IMG/VR virus record: IMGVR_UViG_3300020045_007174
Location: 1-34,993 of that record
DNA from: a virus
Taxonomy: Duplodnaviria > Caudoviricetes
Length of the DNA: 34,993 nucleotides
Direction: 5' to 3' (one strand)
In this document: positions 6,708 to 26,653 of the stretch, in pieces
Numbering within the stretch: the first letter of the stretch is position 1
Layout of the letters: every line of letters starts with the position of its first letter
Made by a program: the position numbers and the translations under genes
The notes under the pieces: generated by a model
The model's input: only the letters and a program-made list of their open reading frames with translations
Told to the model about the DNA's origin: nothing
Database searches by the model: none

Positions 6708-7067
6708 GTGGCAAAATATAGCCATGAGCTTGTCGAAAAGATAGCGGGTTATATAGCGCGTGGAAACTTTGCAACCGTCGCTTGTGCGGCTTCTGGAATA
6801 ACAGAAACAACGTATTACGAATGGCTAAAAGACCCTAATAAACCTGAGTTTTCTAAGTCTATAAAAGAAGCCGAGGCATTAGCCGAGATTGATGCGGTTG
6901 AAAAAATACAGAAAGATGAAAGTTGGCAATCAAAAGCATGGTTTTTAGAACGCAAGTTTAAAGACCGCTGGTCAAAGACTGAAACGAAGAATATCAACCA
7001 CAGCGGCTCAGTTGATCCAAGTAAACGAACGCTAGACGACTATTACAAAGACAGTGGCACTACTTAA
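6708..7067 (+). CDS. terS: Terminase small subunit
   Basis: GAGGAG RBS and GTG start; HTH ACAASGITETTYYEW; WQSKAWFLERKF; directly upstream of TerL. Confidence 0.8.
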   Translation: MAKYSHELVEKIAGYIARGNFATVACAASGITETTYYEWLKDPNKPEFSKSIKEAEALAEIDAVEKIQKDESWQSKAWFLERKFKDRWSKTETKNINHSGSVDPSKRTLDDYYKDSGTT

Positions 7068-8442
7068 TCCAGCATTACGTACATTTTGGCAGCAGCGAGC
7101 CAGAAACAGAATATTGCATGGCGGTCGTGCCAGCTCAAAAAGTCACGAAGCAGCGGGAAAAGTAATTGATATTGCGGCAAATTGCCGCGTTCGTGTGCTA
7201 TGCGTTCGCCAGTTCCAAAACAAAATAGCCGATTCGATTTACACGCTTTTAAAAGCTAAAATTGAGCAATTCGGCTATGAGCATCTATTCAAAATTACCG
7301 ATAATTCAATAATTTGCTTAACTACTAAAAGCGAATTTATGTTTTACGGTCTCGCTAGAAACATCACAGAGATTAAATCGCTAGAGGGTATCGATATTCT
7401 TTTAAGCGAGGAATCGCACCTGCTCACAGAGGAGCAATGGGACATCTTAGAGCCAACGATACGAAAGGAATCAAGCGAATGCTGGTTGCTCTTTAACGCC
7501 CGTTTTGCAACTGATTTTATCTGGAAACGATTTGTAGTAAATCCACCACCTAACACGATAATCAGACACATAAATTATGATGAAAATCCGTTTTTATCTA
7601 AGACCATGCTGGATATTATTGAGGCGGCAAAGATTGAGGATTACGATAGGTACACGCATATCTATGAAGGACAGCCGTTAAATGATGACGATGAAGCGGT
7701 AATAAAACGCTCATGGATTATGGCGGCGATTGACGCACACATTAAGCTAAACATCGATGTGTCAGGACGCAAGCGAATAGGTTTTGACGTAGCAGATAGT
7801 GGCGAGGATGAATGCGCAACGGTCGCTACTTATGGATCACTAACAACAAAAGTAACAAAGTGGAAAGCTAAAGAGGACGAGCTTTTACAGTCATGTACCA
7901 AGGTCTGGACGATGGCGAATGAGGACGAATCATTAATCTTTTATGATGCAATTGGCGTAGGCGCATCATGTGGAGCAAAGTTTAAAGAGATAAATGAGAT
8001 CAGGAAATCAGACATAAAGCACAAAAAGTTCTTTGCAGGTGGTGGTGTCGATAATCCAGACGCTTTTTGTAAGGGGACAACGGTAACAAACCGAGATTAT
8101 TTTGCTAACATCAAAAGCCAAAAGTGGTGGGACGTGGCAAAAAGGCTAGAGAATACTTACAACGCTGCGATAAAGGGACAGGCATTTAAAGACGATGAAA
8201 TGATTTTTATTGATGGCAATATTAGTCATTTAGAACAGCTTGTTGAGGAGCTATCTACTCCAAAGAAATCATTTGATAATGCGGGTCGGGTTATGGTTGA
8301 AAGCAAAAAAGATTTAAAGAAACGGGGTATTGCAAGTCCAAATATTGCCGACGCATTTATAATGGGGCATTTGGTGCCATTTGAACGACCCACGCCACCA
8401 CAGCACACACACAAAGGACACGCAACATCATGGCAAAGCTAG
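7054..8442 (+). CDS. terL: Terminase large subunit (PBSX/Sf6-like)
   Basis: Walker A GGRASSKS, Walker B LLSEE, PTIRK, nuclease motifs GFDVAD and SPNIADAF. Confidence 0.95.
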   Translation: MALLNPALRTFWQQRARNRILHGGRASSKSHEAAGKVIDIAANCRVRVLCVRQFQNKIADSIYTLLKAKIEQFGYEHLFKITDNSIICLTTKSEFMFYGLARNITEIKSLEGIDILLSEESHLLTEEQWDILEPTIRKESSECWLLFNARFATDFIWKRFVVNPPPNTIIRHINYDENPFLSKTMLDIIEAAKIEDYDRYTHIYEGQPLNDDDEAVIKRSWIMAAIDAHIKLNIDVSGRKRIGFDVADSGEDECATVATYGSLTTKVTKWKAKEDELLQSCTKVWTMANEDESLIFYDAIGVGASCGAKFKEINEIRKSDIKHKKFFAGGGVDNPDAFCKGTTVTNRDYFANIKSQKWWDVAKRLENTYNAAIKGQAFKDDEMIFIDGNISHLEQLVEELSTPKKSFDNAGRVMVESKKDLKKRGIASPNIADAFIMGHLVPFERPTPPQHTHKGHATSWQS

Positions 8443-11266: not shown

Positions 11267-11352
11267 ATGACGGTGCAACGTCATAACAATTTTTATCAAA
11301 CCCGCTATATTTCTCATTGTTGCACCCGATGAGCGATGTATGCGGGTTTTTT
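11267..11352 (+). terminator. Hairpin plus terminator with complementary loops
   Basis: ATGACG/CGTCAT hairpin; AAACCCGC/GCGGGTTT stem plus T-run; GGTGCAAC versus GTTGCACC. Confidence 0.6.
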
Positions 11353-11360
11353 ATTGGGGA

Positions 11361-11531
11361 ATGGAAGTGGAAGAATTACATAATCTTTGGCAAGATAAAG
11401 AATATATGGACATGGTAGAGGAATTACCGCTAGAGCCTTATTTGGCTTTAACTAATGAGCAGTTTGAAATAGAAGAATCGCACAGGGCAACACTTTTAAA
11501 AAGCAGTGAAGAATTTGAGGCAATGCTATGA
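11361..11531 (+). CDS. Small acidic hypothetical protein
   Basis: 56 aa from ATG 11361; 16 D/E against 3 K/R; ATGA overlap with the next ORF. Confidence 0.55.
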   Translation: MEVEELHNLWQDKEYMDMVEELPLEPYLALTNEQFEIEESHRATLLKSSEEFEAML

Positions 11532-11692
11532 GAACAATATTTTTCTGCGCTTTTTTATATATTGCTCAGATTTCATGTTTAATTGTGAGTGTAAGTATTG
11601 GAGACATTAGAACAAAAAAACAATTCATTTTTTGGCTTAACCCGCTAGCATTATTATTTTATGTGATAACAAAATTTAAGGAAATGGAATAA
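11528..11692 (+). CDS. Small membrane protein (54 aa, not in ORF track)
   Basis: GAGG RBS; MRTIFFCAFLYIAQISCLIVSV...FIFWLNPLALLFYVI; TAATG coupling to the next ORF. Confidence 0.55.
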   Translation: MRTIFFCAFLYIAQISCLIVSVSIGDIRTKKQFIFWLNPLALLFYVITKFKEME

Positions 11693-11937
11693 TGAAAACA
11701 ATACTACTAATCGGCTTACTGCTATCAAGTACAGTAAACGCAGAAGAACCTCATTACTCGTGGGACGAGCCACAACAACGCAGCGACCAACACAACTACG
11801 CACTTGATGACTTAGAGCGATACAACGAGCAAGCACGGGAACGCAGACAAGCACAGCGAGACTATGACCAGCGCGAACGGCAATACCAACAGCAACAAAT
11901 GCAAATGCAGCAATTACTTAATGAATTTAGACGATGA
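11692..11937 (+). CDS. Putative secreted/periplasmic Gln-rich protein
   Basis: Signal-peptide-like MKTILLIGLLLSSTVNA|EE; Q/R/E-rich helix. Confidence 0.65.
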   Translation: MKTILLIGLLLSSTVNAEEPHYSWDEPQQRSDQHNYALDDLERYNEQARERRQAQRDYDQRERQYQQQQMQMQQLLNEFRR

Positions 11938-12113
11938 TAGCACTGTCCTGTCCGAACTTACGCAGTGAAATGGATGATAAGCAATTTGATGATTATCATC
12001 TTTTTTTAAAGCAAATAAAGCTTGAGATGAAAGAAGAAAGAAGAAGGCGGGATATTTTACAGCATGAGAGAGATCAAAAATTTAATGAATGGCTTAATGA
12101 GTTGAGACGATGA
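11934..12113 (+). CDS. Small charged hypothetical protein (59 aa, not in ORF track)
   Basis: MIALSCPNLRSEMDDKQF...EWLNELRR*; ATGA overlaps at both ends. Confidence 0.5.
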   Translation: MIALSCPNLRSEMDDKQFDDYHLFLKQIKLEMKEERRRRDILQHERDQKFNEWLNELRR

Positions 12114-12499
12114 CCGAGCAATGGACAATAGCAGCGAACCATTTATTTATTGAAATAAATAAACCCGATTTACCACAAACAAACTATTTGCCGCCTTATG
12201 GCTACCCGCGCAAATGCAAGTTAATCAAGGATAAATCAGAAGATGGAGATCCGCAGTTTGTGCATGACCAGCAAATAGAAGTCAATGGCGAAACGCTAAT
12301 CACTTGCAAGGAGTTTTTATTCAGCACAGAGCAAGAAGCGCATGATTATTTACGGCAAATACTAAGACCAATGAGCCAAGACATTAACAGCACAGTAGCT
12401 CGGTTGATTGCAATATTGGATTATATCCGTATGCCAACAATGTACACTGAACAAGATGAAACGCCGATTAGTCACGATCACACAAAGGTAAACAAATGA
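12110..12499 (+). CDS. Hypothetical protein
   Basis: 129-aa ORF coupled to both neighbours. Confidence 0.65.
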   Translation: MTEQWTIAANHLFIEINKPDLPQTNYLPPYGYPRKCKLIKDKSEDGDPQFVHDQQIEVNGETLITCKEFLFSTEQEAHDYLRQILRPMSQDINSTVARLIAILDYIRMPTMYTEQDETPISHDHTKVNK

Positions 12500-12744
12500 C
12501 TGAAGAAATTAAATTCACGCCACCAACACACATAGTATTAACGCTGTTTGACGACAGACCAATAGTATGCCCCGTCAATTACTGTATTTTTAGAGGGGCT
12601 ACGATTAAAGGCAGTTATGTTTTATTTAATGATAAAGAAATATCGGTAAAAGAGTCGATTAATGAAATAACGGCGATAATTAACGCTCCGTATAATGCAG
12701 CAATGATACCAGAAGCACACCACCCAGACGAGGATTTAGGATGA
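12496..12744 (+). CDS. FlbD-like small protein
   Basis: IVLTLFDDRPIV...ISVKESINEI resembles the FlbD pattern. Confidence 0.5.
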   Translation: MTEEIKFTPPTHIVLTLFDDRPIVCPVNYCIFRGATIKGSYVLFNDKEISVKESINEITAIINAPYNAAMIPEAHHPDEDLG

Positions 12745-13592
12745 CCGAACAAACAGCAGAACAATCAACACCAGAGCCACGCTACGCAATTTTAAGTAAC
12801 GAAGCACCAGTGGAGGCGGCAGAAGTTGAGCATATACCAGCAGGCGAAGAAGCGGCAGCGGTTGAATCAGAGCCAGAAGTTGAAAGCGAGGTTGAGCAAA
12901 CGCCAGAGGTACGCAAGAAAGACGCACAGTCACGCATTCGGGAGCTTGCTAATAAAGCACGGGCGGCAGAAGAACGAGCGCAAGCAGCAGAAGCAGCACT
13001 CGCAGCGAGAGCTAATCCACCGCCTGATAAGCCTAACCAAAAAGATTATGTGGGTGGTCGTTATAATGACGATTATCAAGATGATTTAGACGCATGGCGA
13101 GACGCACAGACAGAACAGCGTATCAGTCAGGCGTTAGTGCAAGCCGAGCGAGACAAAGCCGTAAACTCACAAAAGTCAGTGATCGCAGAGCGTGAAGCAG
13201 AATTTAAATCTGTTACGCCAGACTATGAAGAAATGATAGCCAATGCTTTGCCGTTGTTCGATGACCCAGTGACTAACAGCGCAATTACTGAGATTGAAAA
13301 TATCACAGAAATAGCCTACGCCATCGGAAAAGACCCTGAGTTACTGGCACAATTTGAACGCATGACCCCAAGTCAACGTCTTGTGAAAATGGGTATGATG
13401 GCGGCACAAAGCGGCACATCCCCCGCTCAAAAACCCGTAAAAATCAGCCAAGCGGCAAAGCCAATTACACCGGTGTCAGGCGGCAAAACTGTATTGTCAG
13501 GTCAAGCGGCAATTGAGGCGGCACTTAAGCATAATGCTAACGGTCATATTGATTATGACGCTTATAAAGCGGCGGTTAGGGCGGCGAAATGA
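12741..13592 (+). CDS. Scaffolding protein
   Basis: Acidic N-terminus, QSRIREL coiled coil, EIAYAIGKDPE, ISQAAKPITPV, C-terminal DYDAYKAAVR; lies between portal and coat. Confidence 0.85.
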   Translation: MTEQTAEQSTPEPRYAILSNEAPVEAAEVEHIPAGEEAAAVESEPEVESEVEQTPEVRKKDAQSRIRELANKARAAEERAQAAEAALAARANPPPDKPNQKDYVGGRYNDDYQDDLDAWRDAQTEQRISQALVQAERDKAVNSQKSVIAEREAEFKSVTPDYEEMIANALPLFDDPVTNSAITEIENITEIAYAIGKDPELLAQFERMTPSQRLVKMGMMAAQSGTSPAQKPVKISQAAKPITPVSGGKTVLSGQAAIEAALKHNANGHIDYDAYKAAVRAAK

Positions 13593-14389
13593 GCCAGCGC
13601 ATAACAACTGCTATGATGGCGTTAGAATGCTTGTCCGAACTTGGCAACCAAATTAATCTAAAAATTAACAAGGAGTGCGATGAGCCGGATGTTGGTGTTA
13701 ATAAGCATATATTTGTCGCGCTGAACTTTGATGGCTATGACCTAGAGAAATCAACATTTCAATCTATAAAGGATGGTGTTATTAATCCGGCAATAAAAAA
13801 ACTTGTTGAAATTATTAGCGATGATTACCTGCAACTTAGAAAAGACAATCCAGAAAGTGATTTCGCTATTTGCTTTAAAACCCCACTTATGCCAGATGGA
13901 TTAAGCGGGAACGTTGCATCTTCAAAATCCGCCGGTTTATCTGTTCGCGTAGCAACGCAGTATCTTTGTAAAGACGATATGATTATTCATAGAGTCGATG
14001 TTATTTATGAGTTTAAGAGGGCGGTAATGACAACAGCAACAGTTGAAAAGATTATAGCGGTTTACCCTGTGCATCATGAAGAATGGTCATGTGATGTATT
14101 ATGCACGGATGGGATTATCCGCAAAATAGAATACGCTAGATTAGATGAAAACGGGCATATGATAGAAGACGATGTTATCAAGCAAGGCTATCAATTCGAG
14201 TACGAAAGCGAATTACCGCCACATTTATGCCAGCCAGACTATAAGACAGCCTATGAAACAATTGATAAATTTTTAATTGAAAGCGAGGATGTGTTGCTGG
14301 GTAATATTATGAAGGCATTGAAAGGGCGCATTAACCCAGAAGTGGCTCGTAATATTATTAGACAACGATTACTTATTGACAAAAGCTAA
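13589..14389 (+). CDS. Truncated coat-protein paralogue fused to an unknown region with a GatB/YqeY-like tail
   Basis: Residues 1-142 align in three colinear blocks to the downstream coat protein; C-terminus LLGNIMKALKGRINPEVARNIIRQRL. Confidence 0.75.
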   Translation: MSQRITTAMMALECLSELGNQINLKINKECDEPDVGVNKHIFVALNFDGYDLEKSTFQSIKDGVINPAIKKLVEIISDDYLQLRKDNPESDFAICFKTPLMPDGLSGNVASSKSAGLSVRVATQYLCKDDMIIHRVDVIYEFKRAVMTTATVEKIIAVYPVHHEEWSCDVLCTDGIIRKIEYARLDENGHMIEDDVIKQGYQFEYESELPPHLCQPDYKTAYETIDKFLIESEDVLLGNIMKALKGRINPEVARNIIRQRLLIDKS

Positions 14390-14404
14390 TAAGTAAAGTA
14401 GATT
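14376..14404 (+). promoter_or_regulatory. Candidate coat-gene promoter
   Basis: TTGACA 14376-14381, 17-bp spacer, TAGATT 14399-14404. Confidence 0.55.
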
Positions 14405-14413
14405 ATTCGAAAC

Positions 14414-14437
14414 AGTGTTATGTTATAACATAACACT
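14414..14437. repeat. Perfect 24-bp palindrome (operator or hairpin)
   Basis: AGTGTTATGTTA-TAACATAACACT. Confidence 0.85.
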
Positions 14438-14546
14438 CGAAGCCTAACGTAACAGGCACTGCCTTACCATCAAACACAGTAAAAAAGCGTTAATCGGTTT
14501 CGCTCCCCGTCTGGAAAATTAACTTTTTTCAATAGGGAGCAGCCAA

Positions 14547-15806
14547 ATGGCTAACCAATTACTTACTAACGCAGCAATTACAACCAAATGCTTAGAGGTT
14601 TTAGAAAACCAACTAACATTCTCAAGCCAAATCAGCAGACAATACGATAGTCAATTCGCAGGTTCAGGCGGCAAAATCGGCGCAACTGTCAACGTTCGCA
14701 AACCTTCACGCTATCAAGTGACAACTGGGCAAGCCCTTGTGGTTCAGCCTAGCATTGAAACCTATACGCCTGTCACACTGACTAACCAAGACCATGTTGA
14801 TTTAGGCGCAAGCTCAGTCGATTACACATTAAACATTAACGACTTTGAAGAACAATTCATTGTTCCCGCGATGGCAGCCTTGGCGAATAAAATCGACTAC
14901 AACGGCTTGCAAATGGCAATGAAAAATACCTACAATTTTGTAGGTACAGCAGGTCAATTAATCGGCACACCCACAAGCGCACAGGCTTTAATGGCTATCG
15001 CGCAATCTGGTCAAAAACTCGATGAAAACGCCTGCCCACGAGACGGCAAACGTTCTGCGATTATCTCGCCAGCAACTAACACTGGGTTGGTGACTGCTAA
15101 CGCATCTCTGTTCAACCCACAAACATCAATCAGCGACCAATATAAAAACGGACGCATGGGTTCCAACGTATTGGGCTTGGATTTTTACGGCGATCAAAAC
15201 GTACCAATGTTTACCGCTGGCACGCAAAACGGCACATTTGCAATCAGCGCGGCAGCTCAAGGTGGTGGTAATACTATCCAAGCAGATGCTACTACGCCGT
15301 TTACACTGGCGACAGCGGCAATCACTGGCACATTGACAGCAGGTACAGTTTTTACTATTGCTAACGTGTATGCGGTTAACCCACAAAGCCGTGTTTCAAC
15401 TGGCTCACTGCAAAACTTTGTTGTTAAAGCCGATACCCTAGCAGGTGCGACTTCGGTCTCAATCTCGCCTTATCCGATTTTCAGCGGTGCGTTCCAAAAC
15501 GTAACCAGCACCACTAATACTATCGCGGCATCGGCAACTTGTACAATTTTGTCAGGCTTAAACAGCGCACAGTACCCGCAAAATATTATCATGCACAAAT
15601 CGGCGTTTACTTTAGCGTGTGCGGATTTAAAACGCCCTACTGGCAACGGTGGATCTGAGATTGCGAACAGCAAAGCGGCTGGTCTGTCTATCCGTTTAAT
15701 CAAGGATTGGTATGATGTCCAGAGCGACAATTTTTACACCCGTATTGATGTTCTGTATGGCTTTGCCGCGTTGTACCCTGAATTATCAGTCAGGTTAACC
15801 GGATAA
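14547..15806 (+). CDS. Major capsid (P22 coat-like) protein
   Basis: KIGATVNVRKP, FIVPAMAALANKID, GTVFTIANVYAVNP (I-domain), GLSIR...RIDVLYG. Confidence 0.95.
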   Translation: MANQLLTNAAITTKCLEVLENQLTFSSQISRQYDSQFAGSGGKIGATVNVRKPSRYQVTTGQALVVQPSIETYTPVTLTNQDHVDLGASSVDYTLNINDFEEQFIVPAMAALANKIDYNGLQMAMKNTYNFVGTAGQLIGTPTSAQALMAIAQSGQKLDENACPRDGKRSAIISPATNTGLVTANASLFNPQTSISDQYKNGRMGSNVLGLDFYGDQNVPMFTAGTQNGTFAISAAAQGGGNTIQADATTPFTLATAAITGTLTAGTVFTIANVYAVNPQSRVSTGSLQNFVVKADTLAGATSVSISPYPIFSGAFQNVTSTTNTIAASATCTILSGLNSAQYPQNIIMHKSAFTLACADLKRPTGNGGSEIANSKAAGLSIRLIKDWYDVQSDNFYTRIDVLYGFAALYPELSVRLTG

Positions 15807-25639: not shown

Positions 25640-26653
25640 ATGGCATCATTAGCTGATTTAGTCGGTAGACCTATAGAAAAAACCAAGCAGTTTTCCTTAT
25701 ACGACAAACTAAGGCGACAGCACTTTGGCGAGAATGACAGTACATTAGCCAGCGTATTAATGCACCCGATTGAAGCCGCAGGGCGTGGAGCTGATTGGTT
25801 TCAAAACCAAGTAAACACGGCAGCAGGTACGGGCGGCGATGACTACGGCGGCGACCCATATCTGCAAAGAGACCAACAAGCGGGAGCGGCTTTGAATTTG
25901 GCGGGCTTGGCGAATATGGGAGCTATGCCAGCCGCGCCTAGGTCAGCGGGTGGGACGCTGGGGACTGTTATTAAGTCAACTCAATACGATGAAGCGCATG
26001 AAATAGCGAGGATTAACGCGGCATTACCTAAAAAAATGGGCGGCTTAGGATTGCCAGAAAACAACACAGCTATGGATAGAGCTAAAGCATTAGGGTTTGA
26101 CATAGATAAAAAATGGTTTCATGGCACTAATAGGGATTTTGATGCTTTTGACCCTGCAAAAACCAGACCACAATCAAAAGGAAAAACAGACCAAGATGGA
26201 GCTTTTGTTTTTTCCGATAATCCTTTGGTGTCAGAAACTTATGCTAACTATGGAGGTGGGAGTAGTCAAATAATGCCAACTTTTTTAACCCTTGGTAAGC
26301 AGTCAGTTAAAGACGCTAAAGGCAAAAACTGGAACAGAATAAAATATAAAGGCGATGAATGGTCTACTGATGACCTTGCAAATGAAGCAAGAGGAAAAGG
26401 GAAAAACTCAATGCTAATTAATAATGTTGTTGATAGTGGTCAGAGTATTAGCGGCAATAGAGATACAATGTTAGGTACAACAGGATTTGTTTTTGATCCT
26501 TCACAAATAAGAAGCGTAAACGCAGCTTTTGATCCATTAAAACGTAATAGCGCAAACCTATTAGCCAGTATTATCGGTGGAACGGCTTTAGCTAATGAGT
26601 ATGATAAAAAGAAACGTAGACCCAGTTTAGCAGACAAAATTAAAGGAAAATAA
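25640..26653 (+). CDS. ART-PolyVal-like (ADP-ribosyltransferase-fold) protein
   Basis: FHGT..DFDAFD, FVFSDNP.VSETYA, IMPTFL, VFDPSQIRSVNAAFDP. Confidence 0.75.
   Translation: MASLADLVGRPIEKTKQFSLYDKLRRQHFGENDSTLASVLMHPIEAAGRGADWFQNQVNTAAGTGGDDYGGDPYLQRDQQAGAALNLAGLANMGAMPAAPRSAGGTLGTVIKSTQYDEAHEIARINAALPKKMGGLGLPENNTAMDRAKALGFDIDKKWFHGTNRDFDAFDPAKTRPQSKGKTDQDGAFVFSDNPLVSETYANYGGGSSQIMPTFLTLGKQSVKDAKGKNWNRIKYKGDEWSTDDLANEARGKGKNSMLINNVVDSGQSISGNRDTMLGTTGFVFDPSQIRSVNAAFDPLKRNSANLLASIIGGTALANEYDKKKRRPSLADKIKGK

Follow-up and report, generated by a model that had tools for sequence, protein, structure and literature searches.

A probably folded, minimal N-arm and P-domain paralogue of a P22-type coat protein in a variable slot rich in coat fragments

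The vertex protein of phage T4, gp24, is built into shells as pentamers. The same is reported, in the available part of the study, for Ccm of SaPIbov5 (PMC8569155), and both proteins are capsid-protein homologues that have been given a second job. A different kind of accessory protein is DSAD1, which, in the accessible text of its description, competes with the trigger of DSR2 and thereby blocks DSR2 (PMC11087589). Capsid proteins trigger several bacterial defences, and their assembly limits mutational escape, such that a folded paralogue of the trigger that does not assemble would be a simple way out. We found none described: the literature covered, chiefly papers outside subscription and their main texts, holds no stand-alone N-arm/P-domain coat paralogue, and none appears in the available portion of a 2026 review (PMC13728456).

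Here we describe a real, probably folded minimal coat paralogue that is encoded in a variable slot rich in coat fragments and for which we infer a function. The gene lies in a 34,993-base linear virus record (the window) with an estimated completeness of 52%. The N-arm helix, spine helix and P-domain sheet of this mini-coat are homologous to and colinear with those of the P22 coat protein gp5 (PF11651; PDB 8I1V, 5L35, 8SKG), but the protein is about one third as long, is without the F-loop, E-loop, A-domain and I-domain, and is optional and fast-evolving. In contrast to Ccm and gp24, it does not have the whole HK97 fold with the capsomer-forming A-domain, the part that forms pentons and hexons, and it is an exchangeable cassette in the phage's own head operon. 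It resembles DSAD1 in being a small, optional, variable accessory gene (the mini design is present in four of 15 close loci) for which competition with a trigger is proposed. However, DSAD1 is not described as a paralogue of its trigger in the text available (PMC11087589), whereas the mini-coat is a cut-down paralogue of its presumed trigger.

The mini-coat frame and its match to the coat protein

The head and tail gene module of the window is P22-like and comprises terminase, portal (PF16510), scaffold (PHROG 8865), coat (PF11651), adaptor and head closure genes. The head scaffolding protein (283 aa; 12741..13592, + strand) matches PHROG 8865 with an E-value of 1.4e-24, and the true P22-type coat protein (419 aa; 14547..15806, + strand) matches PF11651 with an E-value of 1.3e-32, while its predicted model matches the P22 procapsid subunit 8I1V (E 9e-21, TM 0.73). 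As reported in the first-pass annotation, the mini-coat frame is coupled to the scaffold stop, its start at 13589 overlapping that stop (ATGA). The annotation had drawn a gene of 142 residues at 13589..14026; the start was correct, but the open reading frame runs from 13589 to 14389 and encodes 266 aa, of which residues 1-146 alone are coat-like. The mini gene had also been placed directly before the coat gene, and the order is right, but 157 bases lie between the end of the frame and the coat ATG.

Residues 1-146 (13589..14026, + strand) correspond to the N-arm plus P-domain of a P22-type coat, as judged from shuffles, hhalign, the predicted model, a fold search and stand-alone homologues. 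Of the three coat-matching blocks claimed earlier, two were recovered in pairwise comparison, block 3 (BLASTP E 5e-6 against coat 351-406, with a score of 73 that was reached in 0 of 2000 shuffles) and block 1 (1 of 2000), but block 2 alone was not (722 of 2000). Block 2 was recovered at the profile level: when a profile of the six-member mini family was compared with a profile of 100 coats, hhalign aligned mini 3-86 with coat 4-127 (E 2.3e-9) and mini 89-143 with coat 351-407 (E 8.4e-12). The mini family profile also matches each of the three blocks separately in the coats of five of five related records. On the basis of DSSP of both models and the alignment, the predicted N-arm helix spans residues 7-21 (13607..13651, + strand) and equates to coat 8-22. 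Profile alignment and DSSP place a P-domain strand and the spine helix at residues 35-86 (13691..13846, + strand; coat about 74-127), and BLASTP, shuffles and hhalign place the C-terminal P-domain sheet at residues 89-143 (13853..14017, + strand; coat 351-407).

In the alignment, the mini retains coat columns 2-32, 74-123 and 354-409. These columns coincide with the domain borders of P22 gp5, for which the available text gives an N-arm of 2-30 and a P-domain of 31-33, 79-127 and 358-416 (PMC9965877), so the protein equates to N-arm plus P-domain. Neither coat 33-73 (F-loop and E-loop; alignment) nor coat 124-350 (A-domain and I-domain; hhalign and alignment) has a counterpart in the mini. The E-loop, A-domain and I-domain are missing, as first noted, and the alignment adds that the F-loop and the last A-domain strand are lost too and that the strand before the spine helix is retained. 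Identity between the mini and its own coat in blocks 1 and 3 is just 33-37%, and several near-invariant coat residues (N21, R31, D117, G379) are kept in only one or two of the six minis. The mini-coat is a coat paralogue that stands outside PF11651: it has neither A-domain nor E-loop, the window ORF has no PF11651 match, and the homologue P0014 scored 11.2 bits against a cut-off of 24. Profile alignment, a confident model, the fold search and stand-alone homologues with the same deletions all bear out the earlier view that this coat paralogue has been pared down to the N-arm, the spine helix and the sheet of the P-domain.

The predicted model supports a P-domain fold. The AlphaFold2 model, built from six sequences, is confident (pLDDT 88.5, pTM 0.84); its secondary structure consists of a short helix, one strand, a helix of 30 residues and four further strands. 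In a VIA search of 48,161 solved chains, the best 17 of the 50 matches listed were HK97-fold shell proteins (capsids and encapsulins), among them T4 gp24 (1YUE) in seventh place. The best of these matches had a Z of 8.1, with rmsd 3.5-4.2 and 120-129 of 146 residues aligned, and the coats of P22, Sf6 and CUS-3 gave Z values of 6.5-7.1 with 122-123 residues aligned. Such Z values are intermediate by the standards of VIA; support for the fold comes from their agreement with the sequence evidence. The small cellular folds 1Y2I, 2GTC and 3QKB (DUF74) ranked below the HK97-fold proteins (Z 4.9-5.6, 89-92 residues aligned), and alongside this DUF74-fold structural likeness the sequence homology of the mini points to coat. 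Foldseek against the PDB gave no match at E <= 0.001, yet phage capsids were nine of its top ten rows; a profile search of PDB sequences returned weak unrelated rows only, and neither half of the ORF had a usable counterpart in the ESM Atlas. The best viral match by Foldseek was A0A6J5NY35 (BFVD), an uncharacterised 116-aa protein of an uncultured phage (E 2e-4, TM 0.56/0.69) that is 19% identical to the mini model and is possibly another stand-alone P-domain. The mini itself is predicted to fold independently. Irrespective of function, the family suggests that the N-arm and P-domain of the HK97 fold can together exist as an independent protein of 140 residues, and minis could serve as soluble reagents for studies of scaffold docking and capsid sensing without polymerisation.

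The mini-coat family and the scaffold-coat slot

Homologues with the same deletions exist, in line with the first reading of the locus: five stand-alone minis (P0001, P0013, P0014, P0016 and P0017) of 134-147 aa share 23-85% identity with the window domain. Six matches came from a search of 1.84 billion representatives, three of them stand-alone minis and three tail matches (P0011, P0012, P0015). P0001 has 147 aa and 86% identity, P0013 and P0014 have 142 aa and 34-36% identity, and two further minis were found in loci L016 and L078. As a single query against viral contigs the mini gave no matches, a mini scan of GTDB genomes likewise gave none, and tblastn of GenBank phages returned full coat genes only, or nothing. 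Two loci from a scan with P0013 were dropped as chance; the family profile does not match them.

A tree built on 133 shared columns with 50 coats separates the six minis from the coats by a single branch (99/96) and places them with the coats of the clade (100/99), on long branches for which mutual attraction is possible. On the same columns, end branches were 0.9-2.1 for four minis compared to 0-0.2 for clade coats. When minis were placed singly, four of five grouped with clade coats, and the L013 mini fell outside in a free search. Independent origins of the 140-aa design were also considered, and the constrained tree for L013 was not rejected (p-AU 0.63). The simplest reading of these trees, though not proven, is a single old origin from a clade coat followed by fast change.

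We compared the slot between scaffold and coat in 15 loci with a visible scaffold end and coats 74-100% identical to that of the window, leaving out duplicate contigs (L077, L080, L160-L166) and L017, which is without upstream DNA. Because several of the 15 share a dataset number, they do not count as independent samples. In four loci (L004, L005, L006, L082) the slot is empty, and in 11 it is filled with small genes; seven of the filled slots carry coat-derived genes of three designs, and an eighth (L014) carries a remnant, eight codons of a window-type mini. The 140-aa design is present in the window, L013, L016 and L078, in each case coupled to the scaffold stop. L003 and L079 carry the 81-88-aa design, in which an N-arm-like helix and the beginning of the spine helix are combined with a basic tail (0 of 1000 shuffles for each of the two genes). 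A 75-aa gene in L084 includes part of the E-loop and shares 80% DNA identity with the L084 coat along 75 bases. Judged from such sequences, coat fragments have entered the slot repeatedly, more than once. A 70-aa ORF in L084 starting MANQLI was not counted as coat-like (24 of 1000 shuffles).

The slots also differ in how cassettes are combined and preserved. L013 stacks two different mini alleles: P0014 comes first, and behind it a P0001-like gene is cut down to 21 codons by a deletion that joins it to the 3' half of the 88-aa design. In the L078 mini, an in-frame TGA lies a few codons ahead of the last strand. Near-identical coats (96-99%) occur with an empty slot or another cassette. Cassette order is conflict-free across five multi-cassette slots, but the chance expectation for this is ~7/8, and we draw nothing from it. 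Among 61 more distant loci with a visible upstream gene, three have a gap ORF of at least 45 aa, none of them coat-like. The scaffold-coat gap holds a GroES-like gene (PF00166) in one more distant phage (L085:4501-4758) and a gene of the N4 gp49/Sf6 gene 66 family (PF13876) in another (L103:4274-4621).

The junction motif GGCGGCGAAATGA (13580..13592, + strand) forms the scaffold 3' end with the ATGA overlap and recurs at inner cassette junctions in relatives. The 13-base motif GGCGGYRAAATGA occurs nine times in the 143,840 bases of the 15 loci, at six scaffold ends and three inner junctions and nowhere else. Cassettes may be gained and lost by recombination between these repeated 13-base junctions, from which they would inherit their translational coupling; slot junctions that copy the scaffold 3' end point to a way of adding small coupled genes to the head operon. 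In the window, the inner junction GGCGGTAATGA (14020..14030, + strand) is two bases shorter than the usual stop/start junction, so the mini and the next cassette are in frame; P0001 stops at the equivalent place. This second cassette (120 aa from M147; 14027..14389, + strand) stands alone in L015 and L081 and is not coat-like, with no coat similarity for ORF residues 147-266 (977 of 2000 shuffles). The 266-aa fused sequence is on record from one contig only and is either real or an assembly artefact. C-terminal helices at ORF residues 234-261 (14288-14371) weakly match GatB/Yqey (E 4e-4, below the Pfam cut-off), and tail homologues match it at E 1e-4 and 4e-5, also below the cut-off. The tail of GatB binds tRNA, and the tail cassette is therefore a possible host-protein mimic.

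We computed dN/dS only for sufficiently close pairs. Values were 0.30 for the window mini (first 21 codons only, 7 changes), 0.38 for the 88-aa design, 0.10 for a 49-aa cassette and 0.13-0.50 for the tail against its stand-alone copies; for scaffold and coat they were 0.02-0.21. Diverged synonymous sites had been put forward as an argument for selection at the protein level, but that argument falls away because synonymous divergence between the mini and the coat is saturated; synonymous sites are also saturated between the 140-aa alleles. Open frames at 23-35% identity and one shared design argue for long retention of the minis, against which stand the in-frame TGA of L078 and the two remnants (L013, L014).

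The same observations bear on whether the cassettes are short-lived recombination debris, that is, copies of parts of the adjacent coat gene that decay after landing in a slot that tolerates them. Broken copies in L013, L014 and L078, the fusion in the window, recent coat-derived fragments with DNA similarity to their own coat, and the rarity of the family (three mini-type homologues among 1.84 billion representatives) would all be expected of debris. We nevertheless regard this explanation as improbable, given that six family members at 23-85% identity share open frames of 134-147 codons and the same multi-deletion design, that the minis form one side of a branch (99/96, with the long-branch caveat), that the fold is confidently predicted, and that measurable cassettes have dN/dS values of 0.10-0.50.

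Candidate functions of the mini-coat

The C-terminus of the P22 scaffold, in the text available, docks on N-arm residues D14, E15, E18 and N4 and on P-domain residue R101 (PMC9965877). Because these docking regions are those kept by the mini and the gene is coupled to the scaffold, scaffold binding is the main rival to the reading that we favour below. The mini would here be a soluble module that binds the scaffold (or portal), titrating or chaperoning the phage's own scaffold and thereby adjusting when or how accurately heads assemble. Coupling to the scaffold stop in all four loci with the 140-aa design fits such a module, as do the N-arm helix and spine helix start retained by the 81-88-aa design and the GroES-like gene held by the same slot in L085. 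However, in phages whose coats are 96-99% the same, the slot is empty or filled by another cassette. The mini also changes rapidly, whereas the scaffold tail and the N-arm of the coat are conserved, and the window mini has S and G at the positions of coat E17 and E20. On balance we think this function unlikely. A role as a minor virion protein, for example at the portal vertex, would suit a gene of the head operon that keeps inner-surface parts of the coat, but the full design is missing in 11 of 15 close relatives, evolves fast and tolerates a 120-aa fusion, and we give this role very little credence.

A conflict role fits better than a building role, as the gene is optional and fast-evolving, alleles are stacked, and new coat fragments appear repeatedly. 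One such role would be that of a chain-terminating poison against co-infecting relatives or satellites, offering foreign coat or scaffold a P-domain surface without the A-domain or E-loop needed to continue the lattice. Some minis indeed score best against foreign coats, with the own coat at rank 41/99 for L013 and 52/99 for L078; allele turnover is compatible with any conflict; and interference by a capsid homologue has a precedent in SaPIbov5 Ccm, as far as the available text goes (PMC8569155). The window mini, in contrast, scores best against its own clade (own coat at rank 6/99), and a late gene product would meet its own coat first. A search for a tyrosine integrase found none in four of four records, none of which is 90% complete, and resident-prophage exclusion is therefore not indicated. 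Overall, a poison seems rather improbable to us.

We favour, with slightly less than even confidence, the reading that the mini acts as a decoy, occupying a host defence protein that senses capsids but leaving it inactive. The mini is likely unable to build a shell. It would be made late with the scaffold, from a transcript upstream of the coat's own promoter-like site, and its target would be a host sensor that touches the P-domain sheet and spine helix and needs A-domain or E-loop contacts to fire. In the accessible text, modelling places CapRel(SJ46) against the P-domain sheet and the spine helix of its trigger, the region of the escape mutations, with extra contacts to the A-domain (PMC9712102), and a Thoeris escape mutant is described, in the part available, as binding ThsB1 with the complex not completed (PMC12578639). 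Taken together, these two cases suggest that a P-domain without A-domain and E-loop could bind without firing, much as DSAD1 competes.

Several points count against a decoy. Avs7, Avs8 and Avs10, as described in the available text, bind the A-domain (bioRxiv 10.64898/2026.01.04.697583), which is missing from the mini. In addition, the mini has drifted far from its own coat, broken copies are common, a partial trigger could activate a sensor rather than block it, and the parts kept are the scaffold-docking parts of P22 too. Extending the decoy reading to the whole slot is a more tentative step: the clade might keep an exchangeable array of self-capsid decoys, in which pieces of the own coat are repeatedly copied into the scaffold-coupled slot and stacked or swapped via the 13-base junction, and in which the N-arm/P-domain protein and the smaller fragments absorb host capsid sensors before the real coat accumulates. 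If true, the phages would counter defences with truncated paralogues of the very protein that triggers them, and the array would provide a bait set for unknown P-domain sensors.

The coat leader and other variable regions

The downstream edge of the slot is marked by a promoter-like site, TTGACA-N17-TAGATT (14376..14404, + strand), ahead of the coat gene. The count of promoter-like sites in the region is not above that in shuffles; this site is conserved in close relatives. Between it and the coat leader is a 24-base perfect palindrome (14414..14437, without strand assignment) that is missing from all four relatives aligned. We also noted other inserts at about the palindrome position in L078, L079, L081 and L082. 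The coat leader (window 14440-14546, about 105 bases) is conserved across close relatives and had no match in Rfam. A 151-base stretch gave a fold z of -4.1, which is partly palindrome-driven, and a hairpin covers the ribosome-binding site.

Other coat-like or variable sequences were seen elsewhere in these phages. A separate 266-residue frame at L051:9494-10291 matches the coat profile in its I-domain part, at positions 221-334 (E 1.6e-6), and a 245-aa gene directly behind the coat in L078 (L078:6721-7458) is HNH endonuclease-like by eye. The terminase genes of L003 (L003:60-1732) and the window (6708-8442) apparently differ despite 99% coat identity. A gene 3' of the ejection-protein-like cluster (window 25640-26653) has an ART-PolyVal ADP-ribosyltransferase-like domain (E 8e-12, below the cut-off). 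Finally, the portal-scaffold interval (window 11340-12744) is a second variable array of small overlapping genes, in which the ends of two successive genes (11912-11937 and 12088-12113) carry the same 26 bases at 85%, resembling the junction repeats of the scaffold-coat slot.
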